From: an uncultured Candidatus Saccharibacteria bacterium
GTDB lineage: Bacteria > Patescibacteriota > Minisyncoccia > Phycocordibacterales > UBA2100
DNA length: 40,013 bases
Direction: 5' to 3'
Assembly: GCA_964592945.1 (NCBI GenBank)
Contig: CAZQGK010000001.1
Span: 9,224 to 49,236 of the forward strand
The notes under the pieces are model-generated. The model was not told the DNA's origin, did no database searches, and saw nothing but the letters and a program-made list of their open reading frames with translations. The position numbers and the translations under genes were made by a program. Each line of letters opens with the position of its first letter. The stretch's first letter is position 1. This document shows, piece by piece, positions 8,681 to 40,013 of the stretch.

Positions 8681-10081
8681 CTATTCCTGAGGGTGCATCC
8701 GCGACATGGGTGCTGTGGATGTCGCAGTCGCCGACGGTATGAATCCTTCCTGCTCACGTGCCTCTTTCCGGATGCGGCCGCCCTGCATGATGAGGTCCAT
8801 TTCCTCCGGAGTCGTGTCGGCAATTACAACGTCGTCGGTAAGGTAAGGCCTGTCCTTCACGTCGATGTGTTCAGAGCCTAGGAAGTCCGGCTGCTTCTCA
8901 AGGCGCCATATGCTCCTGTTAAACGGAAGAAAGAAGACGCTCGGATGGCTACGCATTAAGAGCCCGAACAAGAGCGAATACTCCTTGAACTCGCCGAGGG
9001 CGAGGCGTTCGCGGGTGTGAATGATGTACGTCCGTATATCGCTCGCACCGGTAACGAGAAAAAGGTCGAGTAAGCTTGAGCGCTCCGACTCGACGAGGTG
9101 CCGGTCGAGATGCGGTCGACGCACACGGTCTACCATTGTCAGCATATCCGCCCAGTATCGCTGGTCCCGTGCCGTATACAGAAAAGTCGCCGGCTGATAA
9201 AAATACCGGAACCCCCGCTTGATAAGCAATTCGAACGGCGACTTGCCTATGCCGCCGAAACGCGCCTTCGGCCCGGCAATGGGCAGAAAATAGAAACGGT
9301 CAACGAGAGAAATTCTGGCGGCGGGGAGGCCGTTCGCGGGATCGCGCATGATGTACAGCATAAAAAGGTGCTTTGCCGCCACACCGTCAAAGTGCGGTAG
9401 CTCGTACCAAAACGGACCGTGCGTTTCAAGGATTTCTCCTTGCATGAATGTCGAATGCTTCACCTCCATGGCATGAAGATGCGCGTGTACCGGCGACATA
9501 TCGCCCGTCCGGAATCCGGGAAGAGACAAAACGGGCACCGGGGTGTCCGCGTGGGACGCGCCCCCCGCGAGCATTCGTTCACGTCCGTTCACCGCCAGCT
9601 CAAGTTGCTCCGCATTTTGCTTCATCAGGGCCAACATCCGGTTGACATCAGTGAGTGTGGTCCGGTTCCCCGTCATGTCGTTGAACACAAACGAGTCCGG
9701 CTGTTTCTCAAAAGCATAGAACAGGCGGTGCATGAGTATGTACCGATTGACGCTCTTGGCATATGCGTCAGACGCGACACGCCATCCGGCAAGTAATCGT
9801 TGTGCGTTCTCTTCGGTCGGAGCCGCAATGAAAACCCGGCGACGACGTTCGCTCTCTACGAACGCCCGCAAGAAAGGGAGCGGTACCGCATATTTCGCAA
9901 GCGGGTATCGGACAAGAAAGAGTCTGCGGCGCCATGAGCCCTCCGACAGAAGCGACTCGAGGTCGAGAATGGCCGACTCAAGTTCGTCAAGTGCCCGCCC
10001 TGCGCCCTCGAGATCCAGGCCATCGGCGGCGAACAAGGGGTCCGTGCGCACCAAAGAATCGAATCCCTTGAACGGCTGCAT
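8681..10081 (-). CDS. E-family protein E1: uncharacterised, no TM helix, paralogue of 24083..25441 and distant homologue of the D family
   Basis: The start is set at ATG 10081 (MQPFKGFDSLVRTDPLFAADG...), which aligns with the E2 N-terminus. TATAAT lies 7 nt upstream. The track's 552-aa version would overlap the permease gene. The stop is only 6 nt from the gap start. Confidence 0.7.
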   Translation of the reverse strand: MQPFKGFDSLVRTDPLFAADGLDLEGAGRALDELESAILDLESLLSEGSWRRRLFLVRYPLAKYAVPLPFLRAFVESERRRRVFIAAPTEENAQRLLAGWRVASDAYAKSVNRYILMHRLFYAFEKQPDSFVFNDMTGNRTTLTDVNRMLALMKQNAEQLELAVNGRERMLAGGASHADTPVPVLSLPGFRTGDMSPVHAHLHAMEVKHSTFMQGEILETHGPFWYELPHFDGVAAKHLFMLYIMRDPANGLPAARISLVDRFYFLPIAGPKARFGGIGKSPFELLIKRGFRYFYQPATFLYTARDQRYWADMLTMVDRVRRPHLDRHLVESERSSLLDLFLVTGASDIRTYIIHTRERLALGEFKEYSLLFGLLMRSHPSVFFLPFNRSIWRLEKQPDFLGSEHIDVKDRPYLTDDVVIADTTPEEMDLIMQGGRIRKEAREQEGFIPSATATSTAPMSRMHPQE

Positions 10082-10088
10082 GCCGATG

Positions 10089-10094
10089 ATTATA
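10089..10094 (-). promoter_or_regulatory. -10 box (TATAAT) placed 7 nt from the E1 ATG; implies a leaderless transcript
   Basis: The reverse strand reads tataat-catcggc-ATG. There is no SD, and the box sits directly after the terminator hairpin of the upstream gene. Confidence 0.45.
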
Positions 10095-10097
10095 CAT

Positions 10098-10129
10098 AAA
10101 AAGGACCGGTGCGGGCCGCTGGCCCGCAC
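10098..10129 (-). terminator. Rho-independent terminator after the permease gene
   Basis: Perfect 9-bp stem (gtgcgggcc / ggcccgcac, 10109..10129) with a 3-nt loop. On the minus strand it is followed by cggtcc and then TTTTT. Confidence 0.6.
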
Positions 10130-10137
10130 AGAAAAAA

Positions 10138-11541
10138 TCATTTCAGGATGACATCGCGTTCCGAACACGGATGATACCACCGCCACACTGCCCCGAGGAC
10201 ACAGAAGACAAGCGGCACCGAGAACGCGACGATTGCGCCGAGCGGCGGGTTGTGCTCCACGAAGGTGAAGTACGGACCCGCGATGGCGCCGCCGACAACC
10301 CCGATGAGAACCACCCACGGAGATACCGCCCTTGGCCACAACAAGACGACGAAGATTGCAACGATTTGCTCACCCCTTACGATGCTCATGTTTTGAAGAA
10401 GTACTGCGATGTCGTTGACACGCAACGCCATCACAAATCCTCCGATGAGAGTGATGAACATGAATGCACGGCTCCACGCTATCGTTTCTTCTTCGCTCGA
10501 ACCTAAACCAAACCGCTTTACGATTTCTGTTCCCCATACCGTTCCGGCGCTCGCGAGCTGCGAAGCCAGAGAGGAAATGAGCACGACCGTTACGATCAGA
10601 ATCACTAAGGGTTCTGCGGCCGGCAGAAATTTGACGATCTCAAGCGCCGGCAGCTGGTCCTTCATCAAACCCATTCCAAGCATCCGTGCCAAGAAACCAA
10701 GCGAACCGTAGGCAACCAGGATAATCGAGAAGAGTACGACCGACACAGTGCCGGAGAGCACGAGACGGCTCTTTTCGATCGCATAGTTTCGTTCAACCAT
10801 CTCCGGTTTTGATATGGCACCGCCTATCAAAGACACCGCGAACGGGACGCCGAACACCCAGAACACATTCATCGGCGAAAGGTCCGGAAGCGGGATCGCG
10901 AAATCAAACGGCGCAACGGGAAAGATCCACAACAGGGCGATACCCGCTGCACCCAGGAATATGAAGAAGATCTTTCCGATATCTCCTATCATTGTTCCCC
11001 GCATACCGTGCGGCGTTGCCCACAGATACGCAATAACCCCGGCGAGGATGGAAAGTGTAAGCATGCTTACACCAAGATGCTCGCCAATCCACAGACGGAG
11101 TGTCTCCTGATTGGCCGCCTGCAGCATCGTCAGGTTGAGCGCCATCGTGTATGCGAGACTGATGATGGCGAAGATGGCGAAGACGGTGCGTAGCAACCCT
11201 CCCGAAACGCCCCGGGACACGTGCCCGAAGACCTCCGGGAGCGTGTACCCGTCTCCCTTTGCATTGTGCAGAGCCGGGCCGATTATCATCGTGAGAGCGA
11301 GGGCGAACACGTTCGGGACCGCAAAGGCGAGAAAGTGCCAAGGGCTTAGGAAGGCAAACGTGCCGCTCGCAAACAACGCAAGCGGCTGGGTCCAGTCTGC
11401 CGTGTAGGCAAAAGACCCGCGCAGCCAACCAAGATTCCTGTTGTGCACGAAGAAAGACTCGAGAGTCCGCGCAGCACGCGGGGCCACGAGCACGAGGGCC
11501 GTGAGGATGGTCAGCGTCCCTATGATCATAGATGTGGTCAT
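10138..11541 (-). CDS. Polytopic membrane permease, sodium:solute symporter (SSS)-like
   Basis: About 467 aa from ATG 11541, with AAGGAA 6 nt upstream. It is hydrophobic throughout, with roughly 12-13 predicted helices. The N-terminal LESFFVHNRNLGW...TADWT resembles the SSS family start (FFxxxRxLG). The family call is tentative. Confidence 0.5.
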   Translation of the reverse strand: MTTSMIIGTLTILTALVLVAPRAARTLESFFVHNRNLGWLRGSFAYTADWTQPLALFASGTFAFLSPWHFLAFAVPNVFALALTMIIGPALHNAKGDGYTLPEVFGHVSRGVSGGLLRTVFAIFAIISLAYTMALNLTMLQAANQETLRLWIGEHLGVSMLTLSILAGVIAYLWATPHGMRGTMIGDIGKIFFIFLGAAGIALLWIFPVAPFDFAIPLPDLSPMNVFWVFGVPFAVSLIGGAISKPEMVERNYAIEKSRLVLSGTVSVVLFSIILVAYGSLGFLARMLGMGLMKDQLPALEIVKFLPAAEPLVILIVTVVLISSLASQLASAGTVWGTEIVKRFGLGSSEEETIAWSRAFMFITLIGGFVMALRVNDIAVLLQNMSIVRGEQIVAIFVVLLWPRAVSPWVVLIGVVGGAIAGPYFTFVEHNPPLGAIVAFSVPLVFCVLGAVWRWYHPCSERDVILK

Positions 11542-11641: not shown

Positions 11642-12751
11642 TTACTGGGAAATCAGCCGGATCTTGATATCTTTGTTTTCTTGCGTGAAAGGTCCCGCTG
11701 TTTGTACAATTTCAAGCGGTAAAAAGACACCTTTTTGTACGAGTTCAAACAAAGTCTGCGTCGGTGTGAGGAACAACTCACGCGAGAACTTATTCTTCGT
11801 TTCCTCCAGAAGCGCATCCGTCATCGTAGCGCCGCGACGGTACAGTCTCAGGGTAATTTGGCCTTTGGGCGAGCCGCCAGACTGGACCTCGCGGGCTTCC
11901 ACACGATAGTCGTCGACATACGGGAACAATCCAACAACGCGGTCGAACTCCTCACGCCGCAAGGTGGCTCCGGCGAGCTTTACATAATCACGGCCTGTGC
12001 GTCCGACAAGCTCAAATGTAACCGGCGCACCACACCGGCATTGCGGCAAAAACCGCGCAACATCTCCTACGCGGTACTGTCTAATATGTTCATCCTCTAT
12101 CGTAGTACTTATGTACACTTCCCCCGCCCCGCTCTCGTCAGGACCGACGATGTCGATCGTGACACCCTCTCCGGGATGATACTGGTTGCGCCTAAGGTAG
12201 CGGCAATTATCGAGTGATGACAGTCCTCCGAGTTCGCTCGTTACATAGAGCATGCGTACTGCGGCATCCGGCGTCTTTTCCGCAAATACACGCGCACGAT
12301 AGGCGGTAAGCATTTCGCCGGTAAGGAAGACATTTTTTATTCTTAGCCGTGCGGCGGTAGAAAGAGTCTCCAGTACTGCGGTGATAAACGATGGTACCCC
12401 GCGGAATGTATCCGGAGCAAAATCATCGAGAAGCATCCCTACCTCGGGTACCAGATCTCTGATATCGGTCGCCATGACTCGTATCGGCGCATTGCCCTCG
12501 CAGTAGCGCACTGAGAATACATTCGTAAGACGCGTGCTCATCGTGCCCATACAGGCGACCGGCCGTACCGAGTTTTTGAATATACTGAAAAGACGCGGCC
12601 GAGATAGTGTCGCGATGACCAGCGGCCAATCCCCCGTCGTTCCGGAGGTCGTGCGCACTATATATTGCCGCGCTTCCTCTGGCTTGAGATTAGCCGAGCG
12701 TAGTCGCGCGAGCGACCGTTCTCCAATTTCTATCAGATCAGCACGTTCCAT
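11642..12751 (-). CDS. Short PaaK/F390-synthetase-like adenylate-forming ligase A1
   Basis: 369 aa with RTTSGTTGDWP (P-loop), YRVGDVARF, CRCGAPVTFELVGRTGRDYVKLAG and a C-terminal NKDIKIR lysine. It lacks the N-terminal FY..LY segment present in A5 and A6. Confidence 0.8.
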   Translation of the reverse strand: MERADLIEIGERSLARLRSANLKPEEARQYIVRTTSGTTGDWPLVIATLSRPRLFSIFKNSVRPVACMGTMSTRLTNVFSVRYCEGNAPIRVMATDIRDLVPEVGMLLDDFAPDTFRGVPSFITAVLETLSTAARLRIKNVFLTGEMLTAYRARVFAEKTPDAAVRMLYVTSELGGLSSLDNCRYLRRNQYHPGEGVTIDIVGPDESGAGEVYISTTIEDEHIRQYRVGDVARFLPQCRCGAPVTFELVGRTGRDYVKLAGATLRREEFDRVVGLFPYVDDYRVEAREVQSGGSPKGQITLRLYRRGATMTDALLEETKNKFSRELFLTPTQTLFELVQKGVFLPLEIVQTAGPFTQENKDIKIRLISQ

Positions 12752-12753
12752 AC

Positions 12754-13491
12754 TTAAATTAAAACCGTGTCCGCCGGTATCCCCGTCCGGTACTTTACGA
12801 TCGGCGTCACAAGCTGCGCCAGCTTCGTGACGACAAGTTCGCCGTTATTGTTTTCAAGGACGCAATTCGAAAGCGGCCTCATAATAGGCTCCGAAAGTGT
12901 CGCCTCAGCTATCGCCCCCGTCTCCGGAAGAGCGAGAACGCAGCGTACGGTCCGCGCATATGGTGAGTATTGCGTGAGCGAGTTTCTATCAAATGCGGCG
13001 CCGACAAGCGTGATTGCTTCAAGTTGTTCGCTACGGCCGTCAAGGTACGGCCGTAGCCGCTCAAGAGCAGCAACATCCGTGATGAGCTGATCGACCTGAT
13101 ACCTAGATGCCGCATACGATGCTATGTCCGCGTCCTTTTCGCCTATCAGCGGCACCATGCCTCTGTCATAGCACCACATCGACTTCTCAAGCGCCTCATG
13201 CGGATCCGTCATATAGACCATCGGCCGCTTTGACTTCACTCCCCACGGCTCCCGCGCGATGTCCTCAAAACTCCATTCGGAAAGGAACGGCCCACCGGAA
13301 TTGTGCACGATCTTCACGAACGCCCGCTCGTCTTTGTAACGGCGCTGTGACAAAGGGGCGTGTATGAAGTCCGCCCGCGACACGTGCGGCAAGTTGGGAA
13401 GCCCCTTCGCACGGCCCCAGTGCCCGCTATAAAAAGACGAGGGGGCCCTCCGTACCCAAGTGATAAGTTCTTCTATCTGCTCGTCCGACAT
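12754..13491 (-). CDS. B-family protein B1: N-domain-only ligase paralogue with no P-loop
   Basis: 245 aa with a PaaK-like N-terminus (SFYSGHWG...LPHVSRADF). The P-loop position is degenerate (VHNSGGPF), and GELVVTKL...KYRTG is retained. The stop lies 2 nt before the A1 start. Confidence 0.75.
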   Translation of the reverse strand: MSDEQIEELITWVRRAPSSFYSGHWGRAKGLPNLPHVSRADFIHAPLSQRRYKDERAFVKIVHNSGGPFLSEWSFEDIAREPWGVKSKRPMVYMTDPHEALEKSMWCYDRGMVPLIGEKDADIASYAASRYQVDQLITDVAALERLRPYLDGRSEQLEAITLVGAAFDRNSLTQYSPYARTVRCVLALPETGAIAEATLSEPIMRPLSNCVLENNNGELVVTKLAQLVTPIVKYRTGIPADTVLI

Positions 13492-13611
13492 AGACTATCT
13501 GTGAAGGCTAGTGAAGTGAGTCTACCACGCGGTGTTTGCCTACGATGCGTAGCGACGGTATCATGCGAGCACACGAGTAGCATGTTCATTATTGGAAGGG
13601 AGGACGGAGTA

Positions 13612-13917
13612 ATGACCGAACCGTTGCCTGGTACGTCGCCGGCTGAATGCCAAGTATCCATCGGGGAACTCGGCATGGAAATGCTGTGGAGCCTGGTGAG
13701 AGCGGTGTGCGTCACCGTCATTCTGATCGGCCTATCGTGTGGTCCGGTCATTGCGATGGCGCAATTCGGCTTGGTCGGCCCGGGTACCCACCCGGGAACA
13801 CTGACGCTGGCATTCGCTCTTGTCATGACAGCAGTCGGAACACTGACCGGTGCGATAACATGTATCGCACTTATCGGCTCCCGGGTCCGGCTTACCGCGA
13901 ACGATATCGCGATGTGA
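13612..13917 (+). CDS. Hypothetical small two-TM membrane protein
   Basis: ATG 13612 is preceded by GGAAGGGAGGACGGAG. It has two hydrophobic helices (AVCVTVILIGLSCGPVIAMA and LAFALVMTAVGTLTGAITCIALIG). A good terminator follows. I recognise no family. Confidence 0.45.
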   Translation: MTEPLPGTSPAECQVSIGELGMEMLWSLVRAVCVTVILIGLSCGPVIAMAQFGLVGPGTHPGTLTLAFALVMTAVGTLTGAITCIALIGSRVRLTANDIAM

Positions 13918-13929
13918 GCGACACATAGC

Positions 13930-13971
13930 GACCGGCGCCATCTAGGATGGTGCCGGTCGTTCGACTTTTTT
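13930..13971 (+). terminator. Rho-independent terminator
   Basis: 13-bp stem (gaccggcgccatc / gatggtgccggtc, one mismatch) with a 3-nt loop, followed by gttcgacTTTTTT. Confidence 0.6.
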
Positions 13972-14046
13972 GAAATGGGAGACCGTGTCTCACCTTGTAT
14001 ACGAAGAACGTTCTCGCTTCGGTTCAACAGGCCTTATACCGGCTTC

Positions 14047-14075
14047 TTGAACAACATATCCCCTTGGGTTATAGT
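14047..14075 (+). promoter_or_regulatory. Sigma70-like promoter of TctC-1 (TTGAAC, 17 nt, TATAGT)
   Basis: ttgaac at 14047..14052, a 17-nt spacer, and tatagt at 14070..14075. It lies about 50 nt upstream of an SD-led ATG. Confidence 0.4.
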
Positions 14076-14126
14076 CGTGCCTGTGGTCGTTCGATTATCG
14101 GATGATCGGGAGAGGGAGAACACTAG

Positions 14127-15068
14127 ATGCGCTTTATTCGAATGATGCTCACTTACGCGTTCGCGTGCATTGTCTCAGGTCCGGCACTCGGGGAAACCTT
14201 TCCCAGCCGGGCCATTACGGTCATCGTCCCCACTACGCCGGGGTCCGGGACCGATATCGGCACGCGGCTCATCGCCGACCATATGTCCAAGACCCTGGGT
14301 CAGCCAGTGGTTATTGAGAACGTGGGCGGTGCCATCGGGATTGTCGGGACGAGGCGCTGTGCAGACGCGACGGCGGACGGCTATACGATCTGCGCCACCA
14401 ACTACGGCCAGATCGTTCTCGCGCCCTTCGACTACAAGGCACGGGGCGAGAAACTGGGCTACGAAGTGTCGTCGCTTAGGCCGGTGGCACGAACACTGCT
14501 GTTCGATTTCGTGCTCGTCGCGCACAAGAATGTGGGCGCCACGCTTCCCGAAGTGCTCGCGTACGCGCGCGCACACAACGGGCTTACCGTCGGTAACGGC
14601 GGTACGACCGGTGAGTACGCCACAAAACTACTGCGTGGCCTGCAAGCCACAAAAGTGGTTTTCGTGCCGTACCGCGGCGACCCGCTTGCAATGGCGGACG
14701 TCCTCAACGGAAGCATCAACGCCGCCTTCATGACGGCCACTGTCGCACTGCCGCACCTCAAGAGCGACATAGTGCGCGTGGTCGGCACAGTGGGAAGGAA
14801 AAAAAGCGCCCTTCTGCAGACCGTCCCCACCCTGTACGAACAAGGGTGCCTGGCCTGCGGAGACCTCGACTCATGGGGCGGTATGTTTGCCCCGAATGGC
14901 GTGCCGGAGGACAGGATGCGTATCCTGAGCCGGGCGGTTCTTGCGGCGCTCCATGACCCGGGCGTCATCGAGAAGCTGGAAAAGGCCAAGCTTACGGCAT
15001 ATCCAGCAGCCCCCGACGTGTTCGCGAACGTCATCAAGCACAACATCGCGGAGGCTCAGAAACGTTGA
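14127..15068 (+). CDS. Bug/TctC-family periplasmic solute-binding protein (TctC-1), orphan
   Basis: 313 aa with a signal peptide, then FPSRAITVIVPTTPGSGTDIGTRLIA and ...VENVGGAIG..., which are Bug-family N-terminal hallmarks. SD GGGAGAGGGAG lies upstream. Confidence 0.85.
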   Translation: MRFIRMMLTYAFACIVSGPALGETFPSRAITVIVPTTPGSGTDIGTRLIADHMSKTLGQPVVIENVGGAIGIVGTRRCADATADGYTICATNYGQIVLAPFDYKARGEKLGYEVSSLRPVARTLLFDFVLVAHKNVGATLPEVLAYARAHNGLTVGNGGTTGEYATKLLRGLQATKVVFVPYRGDPLAMADVLNGSINAAFMTATVALPHLKSDIVRVVGTVGRKKSALLQTVPTLYEQGCLACGDLDSWGGMFAPNGVPEDRMRILSRAVLAALHDPGVIEKLEKAKLTAYPAAPDVFANVIKHNIAEAQKR

Positions 15069-15083
15069 GCCCTATGACCTACC

Positions 15084-15116: not shown

Positions 15117-15145
15117 AATTACAAGACGGGCACACCTCGTGCAGA

Positions 15146-20045: not shown

Positions 20046-20270
20046 CTACTCCAAAAAACCTCCGCAACTAACAAAGAGTATCTTATTCGGATTTTGTTTC
20101 GGCGCTTGTTGCACGCCGCTATCGGGCGAGCACTCATTGTCCGAAGCAAGTTTCGGCGTATTGTTGTGAGCGAAAAATTGCTGTACGTATATATATGTGT
20201 ACAAGAGCGCGGCAAACACGAAGGCCGCAGCGACGATGACCATTTGGCGGATAGTGATGCGCTCTCGCAT
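20046..20270 (-). CDS. Tail peptide C1: 74-aa N-terminally membrane-anchored peptide ending ...NPNKILFVSCGGFLE
   Basis: It has a basic N-terminus (MRERITIRQ) and a TM helix (MVIVAAAFVFAALLYTYIYV). The C-terminal SCGGF is shared with three other small ORFs but encoded by different codons. TACAAT lies 6 nt upstream of the ATG. Confidence 0.75.
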   Translation of the reverse strand: MRERITIRQMVIVAAAFVFAALLYTYIYVQQFFAHNNTPKLASDNECSPDSGVQQAPKQNPNKILFVSCGGFLE

Positions 20271-29777: not shown

Positions 29778-29830
29778 TTTCATCGGCTTGTTCCCAAGCC
29801 AAAATATTTGTGGACACAAGGGAGGAATCG

Positions 29831-30858: not shown

Positions 30859-31095
30859 TCACTCAATAAATCCCCCACAGCTGATGAAAAGCATTTTGTT
30901 CGGGTTTTCTTGCTGAGCCTGAAACGATGGGTCGGTGCATGCTCTTCCAATGGCAAAGGAGAGCGTCTGGTATACCGTACGGGTAACAAACCCGTGAACG
31001 TAGAGATATGCGCCCAGAATGACGCCAAAGAGAGCCGCGGCAAACAAAACTGGGTATGTCCGCAGGTAGTGCAACACACCGTCATCGTACCACAA
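30859..31095 (-). CDS. Tail peptide C2: membrane-anchored peptide ending ...NPNKMLFISCGGFIE
   Basis: The track start is TTG 31095 (78 aa). GTG 31077, with TACGAT 6 nt upstream, is an alternative, so the start is uncertain. It has a TM helix (VLFAAALFGVILGAYLYV), and the last 15 residues are near-identical to C1. Confidence 0.7.
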   Translation of the reverse strand: MWYDDGVLHYLRTYPVLFAAALFGVILGAYLYVHGFVTRTVYQTLSFAIGRACTDPSFQAQQENPNKMLFISCGGFIE

Positions 31096-32908: not shown

Positions 32909-33883
32909 ATGAAGCTACGACCTGTGGCCGCGGCGCTCATCGCGCTCGCGTGCCTTGCTGCCTCTCCGGCGAAAGCCGCGGAGGAATACCCGTGCCAAGG
33001 AACGGTTCGTTTCGTCGTCGGACTCCCGGCGGGATCCACGACGGACGCCATCGTGCGTCAGATAGCGGGTGAGATGGCACCGCTTCTGAAGCGGACGATT
33101 ATCGTTGAGAACATCGTGGGCGCCGACGGTGCCCTCGGTGCGCGAAACGCGCTCGCAAGTGCAGCCGACGGGTGCAACTACCTGGCGGCGACCAACGGCA
33201 TGCTCGGCATCGAACAGAGGCTGGGGCCGCAAGGCTTCGACCTCGAAAAAGCGGTGCCGGTCGGCATGTTCGCCCGCAACTACCAAGTGCTCGTAGTTCA
33301 CCCGGCGGTTGCCGCGAATTTGGGCGAGTTGCTCGCGTACGTGAAAGCGAATCCCGGGACGCAATTCGCGCGTTCCGCGACTTCAAGTCTCATCGCTTGC
33401 GCCTACTTCGCAAAGAAGGCGGGGCTTGCGATGAAAGACATCTTCTACAAAGGCGATCCGCTGCTGATGCAGGACGTAGTTGCCGGACGTGTGCCCGTGG
33501 CATGCCCGTTCCTGTATCCGGTCCGCGGACAAATCGAGGCCGGTGCATTGCGGGCGCTCGCCATCCTTGGGCCCGGGCCGTTCAGCGAGTTGCCGACCGT
33601 CCCGGCGATTACCAATGTGCTTCCGGGCTCCGAAAAGCTCGGGGCGCTCGAGGGCCGCGGTTTCTTCGTGTGTCCTCCAGGATGTCCGGAGGCGGCCGTC
33701 GAGATGTTCTCGCGATATCTGCGGGAAATTCTCGCAAAGCCTGCAACGGTTACCCGCTTCCGCGAAAGCAGCGCGGAGGCGGTCTACATGACGCCGGGAG
33801 CAACGGCGTTGTACATCAAGTCGCAAAAAGCCCTTTTTACCGAAGTGGTGCGGGAAATCGGGCTGGAGTTCAAACCAAAATGA
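32909..33883 (+). CDS. Bug/TctC-family solute-binding protein (TctC-4), orphan
   Basis: 324 aa with SD AGGGAG upstream. The signal peptide ends PAKA and is followed by AEEYPCQGTVRFVVGLPAGSTTDAIVRQI and ...VENIVGADG. Confidence 0.8.
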   Translation: MKLRPVAAALIALACLAASPAKAAEEYPCQGTVRFVVGLPAGSTTDAIVRQIAGEMAPLLKRTIIVENIVGADGALGARNALASAADGCNYLAATNGMLGIEQRLGPQGFDLEKAVPVGMFARNYQVLVVHPAVAANLGELLAYVKANPGTQFARSATSSLIACAYFAKKAGLAMKDIFYKGDPLLMQDVVAGRVPVACPFLYPVRGQIEAGALRALAILGPGPFSELPTVPAITNVLPGSEKLGALEGRGFFVCPPGCPEAAVEMFSRYLREILAKPATVTRFRESSAEAVYMTPGATALYIKSQKALFTEVVREIGLEFKPK

Positions 33884-33897
33884 CCACGCTGGATTTG

Positions 33898-33929
33898 CCG
33901 GCGGCGCCCCTGGGTGCCGCCGGTTTCTT
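33898..33929 (+). terminator. Rho-independent terminator of TctC-4
   Basis: 11-bp stem (ccggcggcgcc / ggtgccgccgg, one G-U pair), cctg loop, then TTTCTTACTT. Confidence 0.55.
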
Positions 33930-33968
33930 ACTTGGAAGAATGTCCGCCGTGCAATACCATACGTTGAA

Positions 33969-34700
33969 ATGAGCAAAGTAGTCACAGCGCCGGAGATGTT
34001 TGTCGAATTCCTCTCTTCTGTTGAAAAACATATCCCAGAAATGGAGTGTCGTGTTTTCCCCTCCTCTTTCGATGCCAACGACCCAAATCTGCGGGCAATT
34101 CCGCGACCGGTGGATTGGCAATGGACATCGTGTGAGCGGGCGCTCCGGCACGCTAATTCCAAAGGCGTGATGATGCGGCTACCGACATTTTGGCAAATCG
34201 GATTACCGCTTCATGCTGCATGTCGTGCGGTGGGGATTCCCATTTTCGTGAACGAGCCGGAAAATATTCCCGTCGGCGCCATGGCCCTCAAAACAGGCGG
34301 CATTGATACGGTCGTCACGGAAAATCGCGACGCGGCCGCATTTGCGGAGTACCTCGTCGCGCAAAAACTGCCCATGCCGCGATTGGGAATACTCGTGCAC
34401 CGAATTGAAGACGCATGGGACGTGTCCCGCGTAGTTCTCGATACGTGGAGTCTCGTCGCGCAAGAGGTGCACGCATTTCCCGGAGTACCCGTACTCGAAC
34501 AGTGCGCCGCGCTTTCAGCAGAGAAGGCCTCGCGATTCCATCTCTCCGATTCCTATCTCTGGGAAATTACCGGCGACGAGACATTGATAACGGGCAAGAG
34601 TGGCGACCCGATACCGCTTTCCCGATACCGGCTTCCCTGTTCCCTCAAAAAATCAGGGGAATGCTCTTGCGGAAAACCCGTATTCGAGCGACGCCTATGA
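33969..34700 (+). CDS. F-family protein F1: N-domain-only ligase paralogue with no P-loop, second type
   Basis: 243 aa. The pattern EVHAFPGVPVLEQCAAL...FHLSDSYLWEI...LSRYRL...GECSCGK follows the PaaK N-domain and stops at the CxCG motif. There is no TSGTTG-type P-loop. The stop overlaps the A5 start (ATGA). Confidence 0.7.
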   Translation: MSKVVTAPEMFVEFLSSVEKHIPEMECRVFPSSFDANDPNLRAIPRPVDWQWTSCERALRHANSKGVMMRLPTFWQIGLPLHAACRAVGIPIFVNEPENIPVGAMALKTGGIDTVVTENRDAAAFAEYLVAQKLPMPRLGILVHRIEDAWDVSRVVLDTWSLVAQEVHAFPGVPVLEQCAALSAEKASRFHLSDSYLWEITGDETLITGKSGDPIPLSRYRLPCSLKKSGECSCGKPVFERRL

Positions 34701-35962
34701 TGACGCTTCAACAACTGCATGACGTGGTCGAGCTCTGCACGAAAAGCGGTACTTCCCCTTTTTACCGGAAGCTCTACGGGATGAGTGCGGACGAACCGCC
34801 GAGAAATATCACGACGTGGGACGACTGGCTCTCACTCCCCGTGTTCGGCAAAGAGCATCTGACGGGACAGACGCTTCCGGGCCGCGCCTTTCCACCGCTC
34901 CGGAACATCGACGCCGTACTCGCCTCCTCCGGTACATCCGGCAATCCTCCCGTATACAGCCCGTGGACGCTCAATGACGGCTACGGGTACCGCCTGCAGT
35001 ATCACGATTTCAAAAAGGCGACACTTTCCTCGATGCCGACACCGTTTCAGCAGGATTGGATACTGAGCAAACACCAGCAGAAAGGACGACTGATAATTTT
35101 AGACCCGCGACGGCACAAAGCATCGCTCCATCTCGCGCAGGTCATGGGTGTCGACAGTATGTTCCTTATTCTCCACCATCTGCCCGTCATTGCGGAGGAA
35201 ATGGTGCGCCTCGGCATGAACGAAAACATACGCTTCATTGAAATTGCGGGAGAGACGTGCTCGCGCTCACTATTTCTCTATATACAAAAGACGTTCCCGA
35301 ATGCGGTCGTCTGCCCCATTTACGGCTCGACCGACGTTGAGACAAGTCCTATCGGGATACCGTGCAGGCCAATTACCGGTGAAGAGCCGCTCGAGGTGTA
35401 CCACGAAGGAGAGCGCACTCACCTCGAGATAATCGACAGCGGAACAGGCGCGGTCCTGCCGGTAAAAAAAGGAGCCGAGGGCGATCTTGTCATCACTGCA
35501 TACGCCGGCGAGACAGCTACATTCCCGCTTCTACGATACAAAATCGGAGACACCGTTCGTGTTGTAGAAGAGAAATGTGAAAAACACGGGACGTGGTCGT
35601 TCACCGTTCTCGGACGCACGGAGATGGACTTTCTGAAAGTCCCCGGCGGGATCCTGCGGGCGGACTCGGTTGAGCGCACGCTTCGGGCGTTTAGCAACGT
35701 CGTATCGGACCGGTTCGAATTGCACCGGTACGAGCGCAGTACCGCGGAGGGCCTTAAGGTTGAGGTGGTGCTACATATCGAGGCGGCACGGAACACTGAC
35801 ATGGAGGCACTGGCGGGTAAGATTTCAAGCGCGTTGCATGTGGGCGCTTCGTACACGTATAACGACGGTGTAAAAGAAGGTTTGTATCTCCCCCTCATTT
35901 GTGTTCCTCTCTCGGAATCGCCGTCGAGAACGGGAAAACGCGTACGAATGTTCCGACATTAA
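34697..35962 (+). CDS. Full-length PaaK/F390-synthetase-like adenylate-forming ligase A5
   Basis: 421 aa from ATG 34697; the track start 34415 lies inside F1. Motifs are FYRKLYG...WDDWLSLPVFGKEHL, SSGTSGNPP (P-loop), YGSTDVETSP, YKIGDTVRV, GRTEMDFLKVPGG and a C-terminal GKRVR. Confidence 0.8.
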   Translation: MMTLQQLHDVVELCTKSGTSPFYRKLYGMSADEPPRNITTWDDWLSLPVFGKEHLTGQTLPGRAFPPLRNIDAVLASSGTSGNPPVYSPWTLNDGYGYRLQYHDFKKATLSSMPTPFQQDWILSKHQQKGRLIILDPRRHKASLHLAQVMGVDSMFLILHHLPVIAEEMVRLGMNENIRFIEIAGETCSRSLFLYIQKTFPNAVVCPIYGSTDVETSPIGIPCRPITGEEPLEVYHEGERTHLEIIDSGTGAVLPVKKGAEGDLVITAYAGETATFPLLRYKIGDTVRVVEEKCEKHGTWSFTVLGRTEMDFLKVPGGILRADSVERTLRAFSNVVSDRFELHRYERSTAEGLKVEVVLHIEAARNTDMEALAGKISSALHVGASYTYNDGVKEGLYLPLICVPLSESPSRTGKRVRMFRH

Positions 35963-35985
35963 ACGTAGTTCTGTACCGCCCCGCT

Positions 35986-36013
35986 TTGACAACACCTTGG
36001 AAGCCGCTACAAT
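35986..36013 (+). promoter_or_regulatory. Promoter of C3 (TTGACA, 16 nt, TACAAT) with the -10 box 7 nt from the ATG
   Basis: ttgaca at 35986..35991, a 16-nt spacer, and tacaat at 36008..36013, followed by cggagct and ATG 36021. This predicts a leaderless or near-leaderless mRNA. Confidence 0.55.
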
Positions 36014-36020
36014 CGGAGCT

Positions 36021-36272
36021 ATGCACAGGCTATCTCTTTCCGGGGTACGTCTTGTTTTGGTTGGTATTGCGGCGTTCGTTCTGGGAGTTATAGGTTTCTT
36101 TTCGTATACAGGTACGTCGCCGTCCTTCCAGAAACTATCCTGCAGCGTGCGCGACGCACTTACGAGCGTAAATATATTCCGCGATTCATCTCCTATCGCG
36201 TCTGCCGGATGTGAGAACAAAACCGGCGAGGATGGCGAGATATACTACGTAAGCTGTGGTGGCTTCTTCTGA
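36021..36272 (+). CDS. Tail peptide C3: 83-aa membrane-anchored peptide ending ...GEIYYVSCGGFF
   Basis: ATG 36021 lies within track ORF 35901..36272. It has a basic N-terminus and a TM helix (LVLVGIAAFVLGVIGFF). The C-terminal VSCGGFF is identical to C4. Confidence 0.7.
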   Translation: MHRLSLSGVRLVLVGIAAFVLGVIGFFSYTGTSPSFQKLSCSVRDALTSVNIFRDSSPIASAGCENKTGEDGEIYYVSCGGFF

Positions 36273-37002
36273 TAGGCGCACAACGCCGGAAATGCTGATT
36301 GCGGAGCTCTCCGCAATTGAGCCGCGCATTCCGGAAATGGAGTGCCGCATTTTCCCATCCTCGTTCAATCCAAAGGACACTGATCTGCGCGCCTTTCCGC
36401 GGGCGATACATTGGCGATGGACTTCGTGTGAGCGCATGCTTCGATTCTTCGGTGCACAGGCGGTCATGACGCGAGTCCCGAACTTTTGGCAGCTTGAGTC
36501 GCTCGTTCACGCGTGTTGCCGGAATATCGGTGCGCCGCTTTTTACAAACGAACCGGAGAACCTGGCCTTGGGCGCGGCGGCTATCGTTTCTGCAAACGTC
36601 AACGCGATAATCAGCGAAGCGTCAGAGACCGCTCCATTCGTATCGTTTCTTCTTGAGCGGGATGTGCCGCTACCCGCGCTGTGGCTTCTCATCCATAAAG
36701 CGGACGCGCGCGAATGGAGTGTCCCTCCTTCGCTTATACAAAATGGAATTACCGTAGCGCAAGAGGTCCACCTATTTCCCGGGGTCCCAATTCTCCATCA
36801 ATGCCCGGCTCTCGCGAGCGACAAAAAACCCCTATTCCATGTGTCTGATGAGTACGAGTGGGAGATGTTGGAAAGCGAGACGCTTATTACGAGCGCCGGC
36901 GGCGACCCGCTTCCACTACACCGGCTGCTCCTGCCCATTTCTATCCATGCCGCCGGGGAATGCGCGTGCGGAAAAACAATTGTTCAAAAGCGCACCGTAT
37001 GA
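36256..37002 (+). CDS. F-family protein F2 (paralogue of F1)
   Basis: 248 aa from GTG 36256, which overlaps the last codons of C3; ATG 36292 is an alternative. It is collinear with F1 (IPEMECRIFPSSF, EVHLFPGVPILHQCPAL, GECACGK). The stop overlaps the A6 start (ATGA). Confidence 0.65.
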   Translation: MVASSDRRTTPEMLIAELSAIEPRIPEMECRIFPSSFNPKDTDLRAFPRAIHWRWTSCERMLRFFGAQAVMTRVPNFWQLESLVHACCRNIGAPLFTNEPENLALGAAAIVSANVNAIISEASETAPFVSFLLERDVPLPALWLLIHKADAREWSVPPSLIQNGITVAQEVHLFPGVPILHQCPALASDKKPLFHVSDEYEWEMLESETLITSAGGDPLPLHRLLLPISIHAAGECACGKTIVQKRTV

Positions 37003-38252
37003 ACCTCGAAGCCCTCAGTTCCCTCGTTACCCGCGCAACGGCCCCGGGCCGTTTCTACCGCCGCTTGTACGGCATGAAGGAAGGTGATGCGCCGCTTTCA
37101 ATCAATTCATGGGAGGAGTGGAAAACGCTGCCGCTCCTTACGAAAAGCGACCTGCTCAATGAGCCGCTTTCTGAGCGATCGTTCTTGCCAATCCGCGACG
37201 TTGACTATCTGACATCAACCTCCGGCACGACGGGGACGCTCCCTTTATTCAGTCCTCGTACCCAACTGCTCGAATATGAGTTCCGAACGGAATTTTACGA
37301 TGCCGCGGGACCGGTATTTTCATCCAAACTAGTTCCACACCAGCAGGAACAATTCCTCTCCGCGCGCAATCTCTGGCCGCGTGTTGTCGTCATAGACCCG
37401 CGCAACCCCGAAAGCTCCGTACGCCTCGCGCGCGCGGCCGGAGTCGACGCCATTTTTGCCTTCCTCTCTCACATTCCGCTCGTTGCCGGGCATATGGTGC
37501 GGGAAAGCATTGCAGAGAACATCCGGTTTATCGAGGTTGCAGGCGAGACCTGCTCGCGGGCGCAATTTGAATATATGCACAGGACATTCCCGAACGCGGT
37601 CATTATCTCAACCTATGGATTGAGCGAAGTGGAAAACTCTCCAGTCGGCATTCCCTGCCGCCCCATGACTGCCGGGAATCCGCTCCCTGTGTACCATGCA
37701 AAAGATGGCGTCTATTTAGAACTCCTCGATACCAAAACGGGTACAGTGCTCGAACCGGAAGCGGGCGTTGAGGGAGAATTGGTCATCACCGCATATCGTG
37801 GCGAACCGGCGGCATTCCCGACTCTCCGGTATAAGAGCGGCGACACCGTGCGCGTTGTTGACGAACACTGCACCGCTCATGGCTCATGGTCATTCACTGT
37901 CCTCGGGCGCTCCGACATTGATTTTGTGAAGATCCCCGGCGGCATGCTCAAAGTCGACGAAATTGGACGCACTCTTCGCGCCCTGAACGATGTGGTCACG
38001 GACAATTTTGTTCTGCATCTTCGAAACGCCGCTGACGGAGCACGGACACGGGCAATACTGCATGTCGAGCCGCATGCGGCGGTTGATCTCGCTGTTTTAG
38101 CCGGCCGTATCGCCATTGAATTGCGTGTCTCGCCCACTTCTAGCTATGCCGACGGCGTCGCACAAGGTCTCTACGAACCGCTGATATGCCAACTCCTCGA
38201 CAAAGCACGAGGCGACATATATAAGCAAAAGAGCATCATCCTCGAGCCGTAG
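36999..38252 (+). CDS. Full-length PaaK/F390-synthetase-like adenylate-forming ligase A6
   Basis: 417 aa from ATG 36999; the track start 36858 lies inside F2. Motifs are FYRRLYG...WEEWKTLPLLTKSDL, TSTSGTTGTLP (P-loop), YGLSEVENSP, YKSGDTVRV and GRSDIDFVKIPGG. Confidence 0.8.
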   Translation: MNLEALSSLVTRATAPGRFYRRLYGMKEGDAPLSINSWEEWKTLPLLTKSDLLNEPLSERSFLPIRDVDYLTSTSGTTGTLPLFSPRTQLLEYEFRTEFYDAAGPVFSSKLVPHQQEQFLSARNLWPRVVVIDPRNPESSVRLARAAGVDAIFAFLSHIPLVAGHMVRESIAENIRFIEVAGETCSRAQFEYMHRTFPNAVIISTYGLSEVENSPVGIPCRPMTAGNPLPVYHAKDGVYLELLDTKTGTVLEPEAGVEGELVITAYRGEPAAFPTLRYKSGDTVRVVDEHCTAHGSWSFTVLGRSDIDFVKIPGGMLKVDEIGRTLRALNDVVTDNFVLHLRNAADGARTRAILHVEPHAAVDLAVLAGRIAIELRVSPTSSYADGVAQGLYEPLICQLLDKARGDIYKQKSIILEP

Positions 38253-38284
38253 GCATGCGGCTCCCATGTCCCGCTGCTACCCCG

Positions 38285-38293
38285 TGGTAAAAT
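38285..38293 (+). promoter_or_regulatory. Extended -10 element (TGgTAAAAT) 6 nt from the C4 ATG
   Basis: tggtaaaat at 38285..38293, followed by caccgt and ATG 38300, with no SD. Confidence 0.4.
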
Positions 38294-38299
38294 CACCGT

Positions 38300-38536
38300 A
38301 TGGTCGGACATCCTACAGCTCGTACTGTGCGATACGCGGCGCTTGGGGTCGTCTCGTGCATATTGACCATCATCGGCCTGCAGACCCTCACCCCGCGCTC
38401 GGCGACATTGCAAAGGATTCTTCACGTAAGCACGTCGGGGGACGGGGTCTTCGCCGACAGTGGTTCCGCCTGCATCGTTGCAAAGAAGAGCTTGAAGAAT
38501 GAGGTTTTCTTCGTGAGTTGCGGAGGGTTCTTCTAG
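38300..38536 (+). CDS. Tail peptide C4: 78-aa membrane-anchored peptide ending ...NEVFFVSCGGFF
   Basis: It has a basic N-terminus, a TM helix (LGVVSCILTIIGL) and the C-terminal VSCGGFF. D3 starts 27 nt downstream. Confidence 0.7.
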   Translation: MVGHPTARTVRYAALGVVSCILTIIGLQTLTPRSATLQRILHVSTSGDGVFADSGSACIVAKKSLKNEVFFVSCGGFF

Positions 38537-38563
38537 CTTTCCCCGATACGATACAATGCCCCT

Positions 38564-40013
38564 ATGCAACGGGGCCGTCGAGTCTGGTGGGTAGCAGCCG
38601 CTTGCGCCGTCGTTATACTTGCCGCCATTGCGTGGATCGTGCATGTTAAACGGTATGACTCGGTTGATATCTTTTTCGCTACGGCGCTACGACAGGAACA
38701 CATCAAGGAACGCGTCGTCGTGGATGGGATCGTATATGCCGTGTCAGACGGACAGGTGGTGCGCGAAGGCAAGGGAACGGTGACCGGAAAGAATGCCACC
38801 GACGCACTCCGGATCGCCTACGCGCTTGCCATAACCCGCCGGAATCCGCTCCTGTCGCTTGAAGGTACCGACCCGGACAGGCTTGAGCGTGCGATTGTGG
38901 AGTTGCAGTCCGTCCAGCAGGCGCTCCATGATGCACAAGCAGAAGAGGCGGACGCACGGGCCGTAGGCTCCGCACTTTATCCTATTGAATTCCTCAAGAC
39001 TGCGGCTCGCGTAGAACGTGCGCGACGGTTATTCCTCAAAACAGGGGACCAAAAAGATTGGGAGGCTTACCGGCTGGTGCAGACAGAGACGGCGCGTGCA
39101 TATGATTCCGACGCAAGACGATTTGAACAGGCATTTATTGAAACGGTTCCCTCGGATGCGGAAAAGATTAATGTTGTGGGGGGAGGAAAGATCTTGAGCA
39201 GGGAAAGCGAGCTTGCAGCAATAGCGGGAATAAAACACAACGCCGGCCTCGTTCGGAAAGCTCTGGAGGCGCGGAGTAGTTGTGTATCAGGGACGGTATC
39301 TGCATGCGAGGAGAGTGACATTGCGCTCCCTATTGTAGAAACAAATCAAACAACTGCGGCGTCGAGCACGTCTCTTGCCCTCGCCGAAGAGGTAGAAGAA
39401 ATATTAATTCAGTCTACTCTTGCGCCGTCGCAGAACGGAACGGAAAGACCCGCGGCTGCAACAAAGCAAAGACCTGTAGAGCTATCGCAAAGCTTTTGCA
39501 TCAACTCATCGGCCGCTAGTAAGATATTTTCCGTTCGCGAGCAGAAAAACGAGAATGGGGCGGAGGTAGTATTCGTCAGCCTTATCAGTAACATACCTTT
39601 CATCAAGGCAAGTTCGTTCGCCGGTACACGTTATTTTGACTATCTTCTTTCCAAAGGCATCGAGTTCGTCCCCCTTTGGCTGACATCTACCTATACATGC
39701 GCCGAGTTGGGGAGCGACTATGGCGTCGCGCTCGTAATGCTCTCTGTCGACGAGAGTGTGCGTACGCACCCTTTCAGCGCCTTGCTGAAAAACAACACAT
39801 TGCAACTCGCTCAAGTAGAGAAAATGATATCGGATGCGCCCGTCATACGTGAATCCGATATCCGGCGCTACCTCGCCCTGGTGCGTGAATCCATGATCGG
39901 AGACAACTGTGTGGTCGGTTATTCCACAGAAATCGCGCGCTCCTTCATTGGCGACGATTGCTGGTTCCACAGCAACTACGTGGGCGACACCGTGATGGGC
40001 GACGACGTGAGTT
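38564..40013 (+). CDS. D-family protein D3 (3'-partial), with an in-frame hexapeptide-repeat (LbH)-like segment at the window end
   Basis: Open-ended, so absent from the ORF track. ATG 38564 has TACAAT 6 nt upstream. I translated it by hand with no stop through 40013. It has a TM helix (VWWVAAACAVVILAAIAWIV) and the motifs ALRIAYALAITRRNPLLSLEGTD, SCVSGTVSAC, SFCINS and TYTCAE. The last ~40 codons read MIGDNCVVGYSTEIARSFIGDDCWFHSNYVGDTVMGDDV. Confidence 0.7.
   Translation, partial: MQRGRRVWWVAAACAVVILAAIAWIVHVKRYDSVDIFFATALRQEHIKERVVVDGIVYAVSDGQVVREGKGTVTGKNATDALRIAYALAITRRNPLLSLEGTDPDRLERAIVELQSVQQALHDAQAEEADARAVGSALYPIEFLKTAARVERARRLFLKTGDQKDWEAYRLVQTETARAYDSDARRFEQAFIETVPSDAEKINVVGGGKILSRESELAAIAGIKHNAGLVRKALEARSSCVSGTVSACEESDIALPIVETNQTTAASSTSLALAEEVEEILIQSTLAPSQNGTERPAAATKQRPVELSQSFCINSSAASKIFSVREQKNENGAEVVFVSLISNIPFIKASSFAGTRYFDYLLSKGIEFVPLWLTSTYTCAELGSDYGVALVMLSVDESVRTHPFSALLKNNTLQLAQVEKMISDAPVIRESDIRRYLALVRESMIGDNCVVGYSTEIARSFIGDDCWFHSNYVGDTVMGDDVS

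Follow-up and report, generated by a model that had tools for sequence, protein, structure and literature searches.

The 40013 bp stretch of DNA analysed here (the window; GenBank assembly GCA_964592945.1, contig CAZQGK010000001.1, coordinates 9224–49236 on the forward strand) is from a genome assigned to an uncultured Candidatus Saccharibacteria bacterium. The first 8.7 kb was found to carry housekeeping genes of the style seen in the candidate phyla radiation (CPR), which encode L25, a PfkB kinase, a split transketolase, an RPE-like protein, a pilin-like protein and GAPDH. In the analysis, the window was placed in the CPR on the basis of this gene style and of its relatives. Beyond it, from position 8681 to the end of the window, 29 genes were mapped as open reading frames (ORFs), and nearly all are members of families with two to six copies in the window, namely six PaaK-like ligases (A), three (B) and two (F) truncated pseudo-ligases, four microproteins of ~75 aa (C), at least five proteins of a family designated D/E, four TctC binding proteins and two sulfatase-family enzymes. 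Modules built from families A to F were found repeatedly in a small group of related, ultra-small bacteria, and together they represent a real, conserved and undescribed CPR system, though its mechanism is hypothetical.

Genes at the locus

All of the gene sets named in an initial annotation of the window were found in place in the ORF map. The order of the genes is E1, a permease of the sodium:solute symporter (SSF) type, A1 and B1; TctC1; AP1, AP2, B2, A2 and C1; D1; SpeH, a membrane-fused SpeE and E2; TctC2; A3, B3 and A4; TctC3; C2; and finally D2, TctC4, F1, A5, C3, F2, A6, C4 and D3. Their coordinates, strands and assignments are as follows (TM, transmembrane; TTT, tripartite tricarboxylate transporter).

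8681–10081, minus: E1, D/E-family protein of 466 aa, predicted to be cytoplasmic (no TM helix and 0 Cys; 41% identity to E2 and 23–27% to D1/D2)
10138–11541, minus: divergent sodium:solute symporter (SSF), accessory (homologue profile against PDB; PF00474 in homologues)
11642–12751, minus: A1, PaaK-like adenylate-forming ligase, short form without the N-terminal microdomain; motifs kept
12754–13491, minus: B1, truncated pseudo-ligase, ANL N-terminal domain only, degenerate P-loop
14127–15068, plus: TctC1, accessory, TTT-type solute-binding protein with signal peptide (PF03401, E 7e-38)
15146–16561, minus: AP1, accessory, TM-anchored enzyme of the sulfatase/alkaline-phosphatase superfamily (PF00884, E 5e-39)
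16578–18146, minus: AP2, second sulfatase-superfamily enzyme (PF00884, E 4e-40; 30% identity to AP1; start checked)
18172–18921, minus: B2, pseudo-ligase (53–54% identity to B1 and B3)
18924–20039, minus: A2, PaaK-like ligase (37–39% identity to A1, A3 and A4; motifs conserved)
20046–20270, minus: C1, 74-aa microprotein with N-terminal TM helix and tail ...NPNKILFVSCGGFLE*, type Ca, 6 nt upstream of A2
20325–22031, plus: D1, predicted extracytoplasmic TM-anchored D/E protein, divergent from C1 (N-terminal TM helix, four family-invariant Cys)
22048–22425, minus: SpeH-like S-adenosylmethionine decarboxylase (PF02675, E 1e-14)
22429–24093, minus: membrane-fused spermidine-synthase-like protein, polytopic N-terminus and SpeE domain (PF01564, E 2e-32, residues 295–451)
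24083–25441, minus: E2, predicted cytoplasmic D/E-family protein (41% identity to E1)
25543–26535, plus: TctC2 (PF03401, E 4e-33)
26606–27724, minus: A3, PaaK-like ligase (paralogy and motifs)
27721–28470, minus: B3, pseudo-ligase; B3 stop and A3 start overlap by 4 nt
28475–29626, minus: A4, PaaK-like ligase (paralogy and motifs)
29810–30799, plus: TctC3 (PF03401, E 3e-45)
30859–31095, minus: C2, 78-aa microprotein with tail ...NPNKMLFISCGGFIE*, type Ca
31133–32797, plus: D2, TM-anchored D-family protein, divergent from C2; the member chosen for modelling
32909–33883, plus: TctC4 (PF03401, E 5e-25)
33969–34700, plus: F1, second type of truncated ligase-like partner (47% identity to F2)
34697–35962, plus: A5, full-length PaaK-like ligase, A' type with N-terminal microdomain
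36021–36272, plus: C3, 83-aa microprotein with tail ...EIYYVSCGGFF*, type Cb
36256–37002, plus: F2, truncated ligase-like partner (47% identity to F1)
36999–38252, plus: A6, A'-type ligase (45% identity to A5; sub-threshold PF00501 match)
38300–38536, plus: C4, 78-aa microprotein with tail ...EVFFVSCGGFF*, type Cb
38564–39894, plus: D3, TM-anchored D-family protein, reliable to 39894 only

The ORFs in the window are intact (no internal stops), the GC content is flat at 0.51–0.59, and no tRNA or Rfam features were found in the window. Neighbouring ligase, pseudo-ligase and peptide genes are 2, 2, 4 or 6 nt apart or, in three cases, overlap by 4 nt, and the tight packing initially reported for every set applies to these core pairs but not to the remaining junctions, which measure 16–100 nt. 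The start sites that had been taken from the longest ORFs for E1, D1, E2, B3, AP2, A5, A6 and C3 required correction, the true starts being downstream.

An independent assembly (L038; ERZ27247837) was found to be 100% identical to the window between positions 33814 and 39894, after which it diverges, completing D3 (571 aa) and continuing into two more D paralogues (572 and 553 aa). In the window, the D3 frame is open, with no stop, from 39895 to 40013 and runs into a sequence resembling hexapeptide repeats of the left-handed beta-helix (LbH) kind (weak PF25084 match). The independent assembly indicates that these last 119 bases, originally counted as part of D3, do not belong to this gene, and they are probably a chimeric assembly join or a strain variant or rearrangement.

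All window proteins were compared with one another using BLASTP, and the window was compared with itself using blastn. Within families, protein identity ranged from 21 to 60% overall and DNA identity was almost nil. Identities were 37–41% among A1–A4, 45% between A5 and A6 and 21–28% between these two groups, 53–60% among B1–B3, 47% between F1 and F2, 41% between E1 and E2, 28% over 507 aa between D1 and D2, 23–27% between D and E proteins, 24–34% among TctC1–TctC4 and 30% between AP1 and AP2, with the C peptides sharing 31–39% in addition to their invariant tail. The self-comparison of the window gave only six short matches (43–299 nt, 70–81% identity), each within the most conserved coding stretches, so that recent duplication or an assembly repeat can be ruled out and the copies are old paralogues that have been retained, as had been proposed from their similarity at the protein level.

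In the 635 nt gap between B1 and TctC1, an ORF on the plus strand just upstream of TctC1 (coordinates 13612–13917) possibly encodes a small membrane protein of ~100 aa with two to three hydrophobic segments. This ORF had no Pfam match even at E 10, and a TctB-like role is conceivable but unsupported. A further ORF of 143 aa (4373–4804, minus strand) is located between the two halves of the split transketolase (3384–4376 and 4809–5663).

Conservation of the locus in related bacteria

Related loci were collected using three independent anchors, B, D and the C tail. The B anchor gave three long contigs from the list of B homologues and 14 GTDB species representatives, the D anchor two loci (L020 and L021) and the C-tail anchor 16 metagenome loci, and the window families were mapped onto them by tblastn together with a regular expression for the tail. 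The carriers reached from B all have CPR names (Kaiserbacteria, Nomurabacteria, Parcubacteria, Paceibacterota and some metagenome-assembled genomes labelled 'Saccharibacteria'), and the same modules are repeated in >30 loci, all from CPR bacteria or Paceibacterota where named. The proteins encoded by the related loci are 30–60% identical, which excludes that these loci are redundant copies of one genome.

Two modules were recognised. In one, D is divergent from C(a)-A-B, which is often lengthened to C-A-B-A-E, and the other has the order F-A'-C(b)-D-D. A TctC or DctP binding protein is located between or beside the modules, with an SSF permease and sulfatase-like enzymes as frequent extras. 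An A gene adjoins C in 13 of about 14 C-anchored loci with sufficient flanking sequence, and C is directly beside A/B or A'/F in >30 loci. In a set of 5.8e9 proteins, homologues of B form only 49 clusters, of which the few with names are from Paceibacterota. This linkage is therefore not a product of chance, and the families were not found scattered in related genomes, which answers the question of linkage beyond chance raised in the initial annotation.

Most relatives have one copy of each module, whereas the window has approximately three sets of Ca-type ligases and two of the Cb type. The canonical C-A-B-A-E order, present in L023, L027 and L031, can also be recognised in the window, where the string C2-[TctC3]-A4-B3-A3-[TctC2]-E2 corresponds to this order split by two TctC genes on the opposite strand. 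In L003 and L005, the locus adjoins genes for GAPDH, RpiB, RPE and a split transketolase, as it does in the window. The term 'island', in the sense of a horizontally acquired element, is ruled out by these shared neighbours, by synteny in the relatives, by the uniform GC content and by the lack of tRNA or Rfam features, and the window is an expanded copy of a lineage-specific syntenic locus rather than a mobile island.

Two further groups of genes, neither with a member in the window, were seen in the relatives. A Cys-rich, signal-anchored family of ~390 aa flanks the system in 12 of 17 loci, in up to about eight tandem copies (L003, coordinates 1–1020; L005, 112–1290; L009, 14–6913; L018, 242–9968; and others). 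In several relatives, B is followed by genes for two small TM-anchored proteins of ~135–150 aa, one of them ending in ...(L/I)FGNPL*, and then for a polytopic membrane protein of ~610 aa with a C-terminus resembling tetratricopeptide repeats (L003, coordinates 11850–14625; L004, 10765–13500; L005, 10741–13462).

Core and accessory protein families

Searches of Pfam, NCBIfam, PADLOC and PDB sequences returned nothing above threshold for A to F, except weak ANL matches for A. None of A, B, C, D, E and F had a PADLOC match that would indicate anti-phage defence, and no description of the system was found in literature on the tail motif, on PaaK-like enzymes with precursor peptides or on ligases of Patescibacteria. 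The databases and literature thus agree with the initial view that no characterised system has this combination, the core families mapping to no described family or pathway. We rate the ensemble as outside the known kinds of system, with one of the six core families in a known superfamily and a function that is hypothetical.

The six ligases A1–A6 all retain the P-loop (T/S)SG(T/S)(T/S)G (TSGTTG in A1), YxxxE, the hinge RYxxGD, GRxxDxxKxxG and the C-terminal catalytic Lys. A profile of A matched phenylacetate-CoA ligase PaaK in PDB with E values of 2.6e-16 and 1.8e-12, the next-best solved relatives being DltA at 2e-5, and A5 alone matched PaaK in PDB at E 2e-6 using phmmer. The NCBIfam PaaK models matched A5 at E 1e-15, far under their cut-offs, the best PaaK equivalog scores being 43 bits (TIGR02155, cut-off 646) and 57 bits (NF041878, cut-off 700). 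A1 had no match to either equivalog model, its NCBIfam matches being sub-threshold only. The N-terminal microdomain is missing from A1–A4 and present in A5 (A' type). From these matches and motifs, A and A' are predicted to be distant PaaK-like ligases of the ANL superfamily that have intact catalytic motifs and are not PaaK equivalogs.

All six ligases also carry an invariant Cys, an invariant histidine in a 'YH' pair and a CxC(G) motif (CxxH in A5/A6) just after the hinge, corresponding in A1 to C183, H192, C238 and C240, and F and distant homologues of B likewise keep the CxCG motif at their C-termini. This conserved Cys/His set could be a structural zinc site, which is not in typical PaaK.

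The interpretation of B as a pseudo-ligase was supported by profile comparison. Using hhalign, B aligned with the A family (probability 92%, E 7e-7) over 229 columns that take in the N-terminal domain of ANL enzymes, and its alignment with the N-terminal domain of A' takes in the hinge and the N-terminal microdomain absent from A1–A4. Its P-loop is degenerate and the C-terminal domain is absent. For F, the match to A was weaker (hhalign probability 80%, E 1.5e-5) and covered only 66 columns of the hinge and CxCG region, and F matched B at 57%; F is probably a second type of truncated ligase, with support weaker than that for B. Both B and F have no C-domain, degenerate P-loops and no tail Cys motif, and signal peptides are absent from A, B and F.

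The mean column identity of the B alignment is 53%. Among the window paralogues, B is better conserved than the active ligase A (53–60% compared with 37–41%), and it contains a near-invariant motif, HEAxEKSxWCY, with a conserved Cys (residues 99–108 of B1). As B is conserved more than A and carries this motif, it may itself act in catalysis or as a relay instead of providing a passive scaffold.

In the C microproteins, encoded by ORFs of 68–91 aa, a short basic N-terminus is followed by a single hydrophobic helix and by a linker that varies and usually contains one Cys, and the sequence ends in an invariant tail with the consensus (L/F)F(I/V)(S/T)-C-(G/A)-G-(F/I/Y)-x(1-2)-COOH. The tail forms the extreme C-terminus, with one or two residues after G-(F/I/Y), and the helix is N-terminal to it, 30–45 residues away. 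Type Ca tails have the form ...NPNKxLF(I/V)(S/T)CGGF(L/I/F)(E/D/Q) and type Cb tails the form ...(I)(F/Y/L)F(I/L/V)(S/T)CGG(I/F)(Y/F), with the variants SCAGFLE and SCAGYLD in more distant genomes. The distance of the Cys from the C-terminus is fixed for each type, at −6 in Ca and −5 in Cb. The best-conserved part of the tail is the Cys flanked by S/T and G/A-G, with the terminal residues less conserved, and the linker and TM segments vary freely; the tail is retained in >40 loci while the remainder of these small ORFs drifts. Moreover, the type of peptide tracks the type of ligase, as tails ending in F[LIF][EDQ] adjoin A and B and tails ending in [IF][YF] come after F-A'. A ubiquitin-like 'GG' carrier was ruled out by the hydrophobic N-terminus, the lack of an E1-like enzyme and the residues after GG, and a lipobox or a C-terminal sorting signal (sortase, exosortase or rhombosortase) by the position of the motif.

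The initial grouping of D with E stands, refined to one family that is homologous along its full length. D proteins carry four invariant Cys and a TM helix at the N-terminus, both of which E proteins lack, and we therefore read D as the extracytoplasmic and E as the cytoplasmic form. A set of polar residues is nevertheless common to both (E132, R135, R216, D315, Y340, Y348, Y409, N490 and S492 in D2 numbering), which suggests that the same site is used on both sides of the membrane. An exhaustive HMMER search with D recovered 939 representative clusters, whereas word-indexed homologue searches, with either a single sequence or a profile, gave only two to three matches. No Pfam domain was found in ten sampled D-family members, the D/E family had no Pfam or NCBIfam match, and a profile search of PDB sequences was empty.

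A very confident AlphaFold2 model of D2 built from a 125-sequence alignment (predicted local distance difference test score 95.5, predicted template modelling score 0.93) is mostly helical with a small sheet; an earlier model from seven sequences (local score 53) was not used. Foldseek found no match to this model in PDB (best E 0.11, template modelling score ≤0.13) or in BFVD (best E 0.04, template modelling score ≤0.16), and the predicted fold is probably new, in that neither solved structures nor predicted viral ones offer a counterpart to it.

In P0145 (954 aa), a representative of the D family, D is fused to the Cys-rich secreted family that flanks many of the loci, which suggests that the two families act together outside the cell.

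Among the products of the 29 genes, the only ones with matches above Pfam thresholds are the four TctC proteins, the two Sulfatase proteins and those matching AdoMet_dc and Spermine_synth. The product originally annotated as a permease is indeed a transporter, and its identity could be narrowed to a divergent sodium:solute symporter, as a profile of five homologues matched DUR3, vSGLT and CHT1 in PDB at E about 1e-16 and three of the five homologues have PF00474; it recurs in related loci. In AP1 and AP2, the C/S-x-P-x-R formylglycine motif expected of sulfatases is absent, the corresponding residues being T-V-P-A-F and L-T-P-I-S, respectively. True sulfatases are thereby ruled out, and both look like phospho- or sulfo-transferases or hydrolases with a Thr/Ser nucleophile.

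SpeE and SpeH, in one string with E2 in the window, were absent from all related loci examined and are ruled out as core components. The carboxylate-binding proteins TctC (TTT type) and DctP, of the tripartite ATP-independent periplasmic (TRAP) type, are from unrelated families, and one takes the place of the other at this locus depending on the genome, DctP genes being present in L003–L005 and L020. It is unusual for genomes of this small size to have orphan binding proteins of the TctC/DctP type. The core does not include TctC, the sulfatase-like enzymes, the symporter or SpeE/SpeH, all of which are accessory.

Possible functions of the system

Precedents for an acyl group carried on a short C-terminal motif are found in two other systems. 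LuxE, an acyl-protein synthetase related to PaaK, does not use CoA but forms a thioester at its Cys364. This Cys is part of a flexible motif at the C-terminus, TRxxKGCxLS, which takes the acyl group from acyl-AMP, after which the tail moves across to a second enzyme (PMC9157457). In the case of the membrane microprotein DltX, a C-terminal hexapeptide shuttles an acyl group to TM-anchored DltD (PMC12148441). It is possible, and is proposed here tentatively, that the invariant Cys of the C tail is acylated by the ligase pairs and that D and E then process the tail. C would be a membrane microprotein with the invariant tail as its working part, each type of C being served by its own cytoplasmic ligase set, Ca by A and B and Cb by A' and F. 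The PaaK-like ligase would adenylate a carboxylic acid using ATP, and the acyl group would then pass from acyl-AMP to the tail Cys, with its small flanking residues, forming a thioester there instead of with CoA. B or F, truncated and without a P-loop, could be a dimer or docking subunit, and the loaded or modified tail would be handled by E in the cytoplasm and by D outside the membrane in the manner of DltX and DltD. TctC or DctP, the sodium:solute symporter and the sulfatase-superfamily enzymes might supply or release the acid.

This acyl relay is favoured because tail and ligase types travel together, the tail is centred on a Cys, a complete A is paired with a dead half-ligase, D and E form an outside and inside pair, the binding proteins are interchangeable, and LuxE and DltX provide precedents. 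Beyond the assignment of A as an adenylate-forming enzyme, all of the steps are ones that we infer, including C as the substrate, its Cys as the acceptor, the identity of the acid and the action of D and E. Several points weigh against the proposal. The relation of A to C as enzyme and substrate is drawn from adjacency, which is no proof by itself. Lys and Arg flanking the C helix number 55 on the N-terminal side and 44 on the C-terminal side in 27 peptides, which weakly favours an N-in/C-out topology with the tail outside. As signal peptides are absent from the ligases, the tail would in that case need to be modified before C enters the membrane. Most C peptides have another Cys, in the linker, which could form a disulfide bond with the tail Cys. 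D and E have no obvious common nucleophile except Tyr, Ser and Asp; no channel resembling those of membrane-bound O-acyltransferases (MBOAT), recognisable acyltransferase or thioesterase is present at the locus; and no TctA/TctB or DctQ/DctM was seen in the window or the related-locus tables.

Comparison with known systems showed partial likenesses. The ligases here are related to PaaK, as is LuxE, and again a Cys next to Gly is found in a short C-terminal tail encoded beside them. However, the Cys tail of LuxE sits on an enzyme without the ANL C-terminal subdomain, whereas the tail here is on a separate microprotein and A keeps the C-domain and its Lys. There was no Pfam match to a LuxC-type reductase or LuxE in the window, and no significant LuxE match in Pfam or PDB searches. 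The Dlt system likewise combines a cytoplasmic ANL ligase with a membrane microprotein that has an invariant C-terminal motif and with a TM-anchored extracellular protein, but its shuttle residue is the Tyr in FxYxxF, whereas here it would be the Cys in SCGGF, Ca tails having no Tyr. The predicted fold of D is unrelated to DltD, and no DltC-type phosphopantetheine carrier, MBOAT protein (DltB) or SGNH protein (DltD) was found in the window or the neighbour tables. PaaK itself is the closest sequence relative of A and A', with the P-loop, hinge and catalytic Lys conserved, but the obligate neighbours here are truncated pseudo-ligases and a microprotein, and paa pathway genes are absent. With four bona fide TctC proteins in the window and DctP at the same locus in relatives, the locus resembles those of TTT and TRAP transporters. 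However, these binding proteins are orphans, and a complete transporter of either type is ruled out because the membrane components were not seen in the window or related loci, the sole large permease being SSF-like.

A small precursor gene beside ATP-using enzymes and a dead paralogue is also found in systems for ribosomally synthesised and post-translationally modified peptides (RiPPs) and in AgrD-AgrB. The autoinducing peptides (AIPs) of staphylococci have a five-residue thiolactone ring, which may be compared with the position of the Cys in C, 5–6 residues from the C-terminus. In C, however, it is the membrane-spanning N-terminal part that varies, the tail being invariant, and Pfam and NCBIfam gave no match in the window or its neighbours to AgrB, YcaO, an E1-like, radical-SAM or lanthionine enzyme, a leader protease or an exporter. 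The system is therefore not Lux, Dlt, Agr, thiazole/oxazole-modified microcin (TOMM), TTT or TRAP, as a defining component of each was looked for and not found.

Other explanations were weighed against the relay. It could instead be that the ligase pairs, A with B or A' with F, make CoA thioesters or amides (for example, with the polyamines of SpeE/SpeH) from host-derived acids captured by the binding proteins, symporter and sulfatase-like enzymes, while C, D and the secreted neighbours form a separate envelope complex under shared regulation. Such scavenging of small acids, which we consider doubtful, would fit with the small aromatic or acyl acids that PaaK-family enzymes normally use, with the recurrence of TctC, DctP and the SSF symporter in the loci and with the string of SpeE, SpeH and E2 in the window, and the fusion of D to the Cys-rich family points to an extracellular complex. 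However, it does not explain why each type of ligase has its own type of peptide, why C is 6 nt from A2 and beside A in about 30 loci, or why E, a cytoplasmic D paralogue, closes the C-A-B-A-E operon. Further, SpeE/SpeH and the symporter are missing from most related loci, and TctA/B and DctQ/M were not seen. At the other extreme, the genes may form no functional unit, the stretch being a paralogue-rich part of a fast-evolving CPR genome or an assembly artefact, with small ORFs that do not represent genes. In its favour, lineage-specific families without assigned function abound in CPR genomes, and the window probably ends in a chimeric junction. Nevertheless, this explanation is highly improbable given that the order of the genes holds across many species-level genomes and metagenomes under all three anchors, that an independent assembly reproduces 33814–39894 exactly, and that the tail is invariant in >40 loci while the rest drifts in ORFs that remain intact.

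Maturation resembling that of RiPPs is unlikely, though several features recall it. A would adenylate the C-terminal carboxylate of a precursor, C, and the activated end would be captured by an amine or by the tail Cys, giving an AIP-like thiolactone with a C-G-G-I-Y or C-G-G-F-L-E ring. B or F would be a dead peptide-binding partner, and the product, exported by means of the N-terminal signal-anchor, would be trimmed or recognised outside by D. C is indeed a small precursor-like gene directly upstream of modifying enzymes in one operon and in several copies, its Cys is at a fixed distance from the end in each type, the types co-vary with those of the ligases, and its basic N-terminus and hydrophobic helix have the look of an export signal. 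Cleavage could occur at the conserved NPNK that directly precedes the Ca tail, and an inactive enzyme paralogue as partner, as with B, resembles RiPP recognition partners. On the other hand, we know of no ANL enzyme that adenylates a peptide C-terminus, and conservation is lower at the last residues (E/D/Q and Y/F) than in the Cys-Gly-Gly core. Across distant genomes, the 'core' is near-invariant and the 'leader' variable, the opposite of most signalling RiPPs, and no protease, ABC exporter, RiPP recognition element domain or receptor kinase was found in any locus. Also distinctly unlikely is that C peptides are protein-borne thiol carriers that replace CoA or acyl carrier protein in these reduced episymbionts. 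The ligase pairs would load scavenged fatty or other organic acids onto the tail Cys at the membrane, and D and E, with their new fold, would be acyltransferases that transfer the acids, on both membrane faces, to lipids or to polymers of the envelope.

CPR bacteria, or Patescibacteria, account for a large share of bacterial diversity, and the locus defines in them a conserved, testable multi-gene system that comprises an ATP-dependent ligase with a dead partner, a Cys-tail microprotein and a family of ~940 clusters with inside and outside forms. The six ligases, five partners, four peptides and at least five D/E genes of the window are a natural set of variants for biochemistry. If C peptides do serve as thiol carriers, the system would be a new route by which CPR bacteria, which are unable to make membrane lipids, build or remodel their envelope. 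Whether it works by an acyl relay, by peptide maturation or in another way, the system would add a new enzyme and carrier logic, and probably a new fold.

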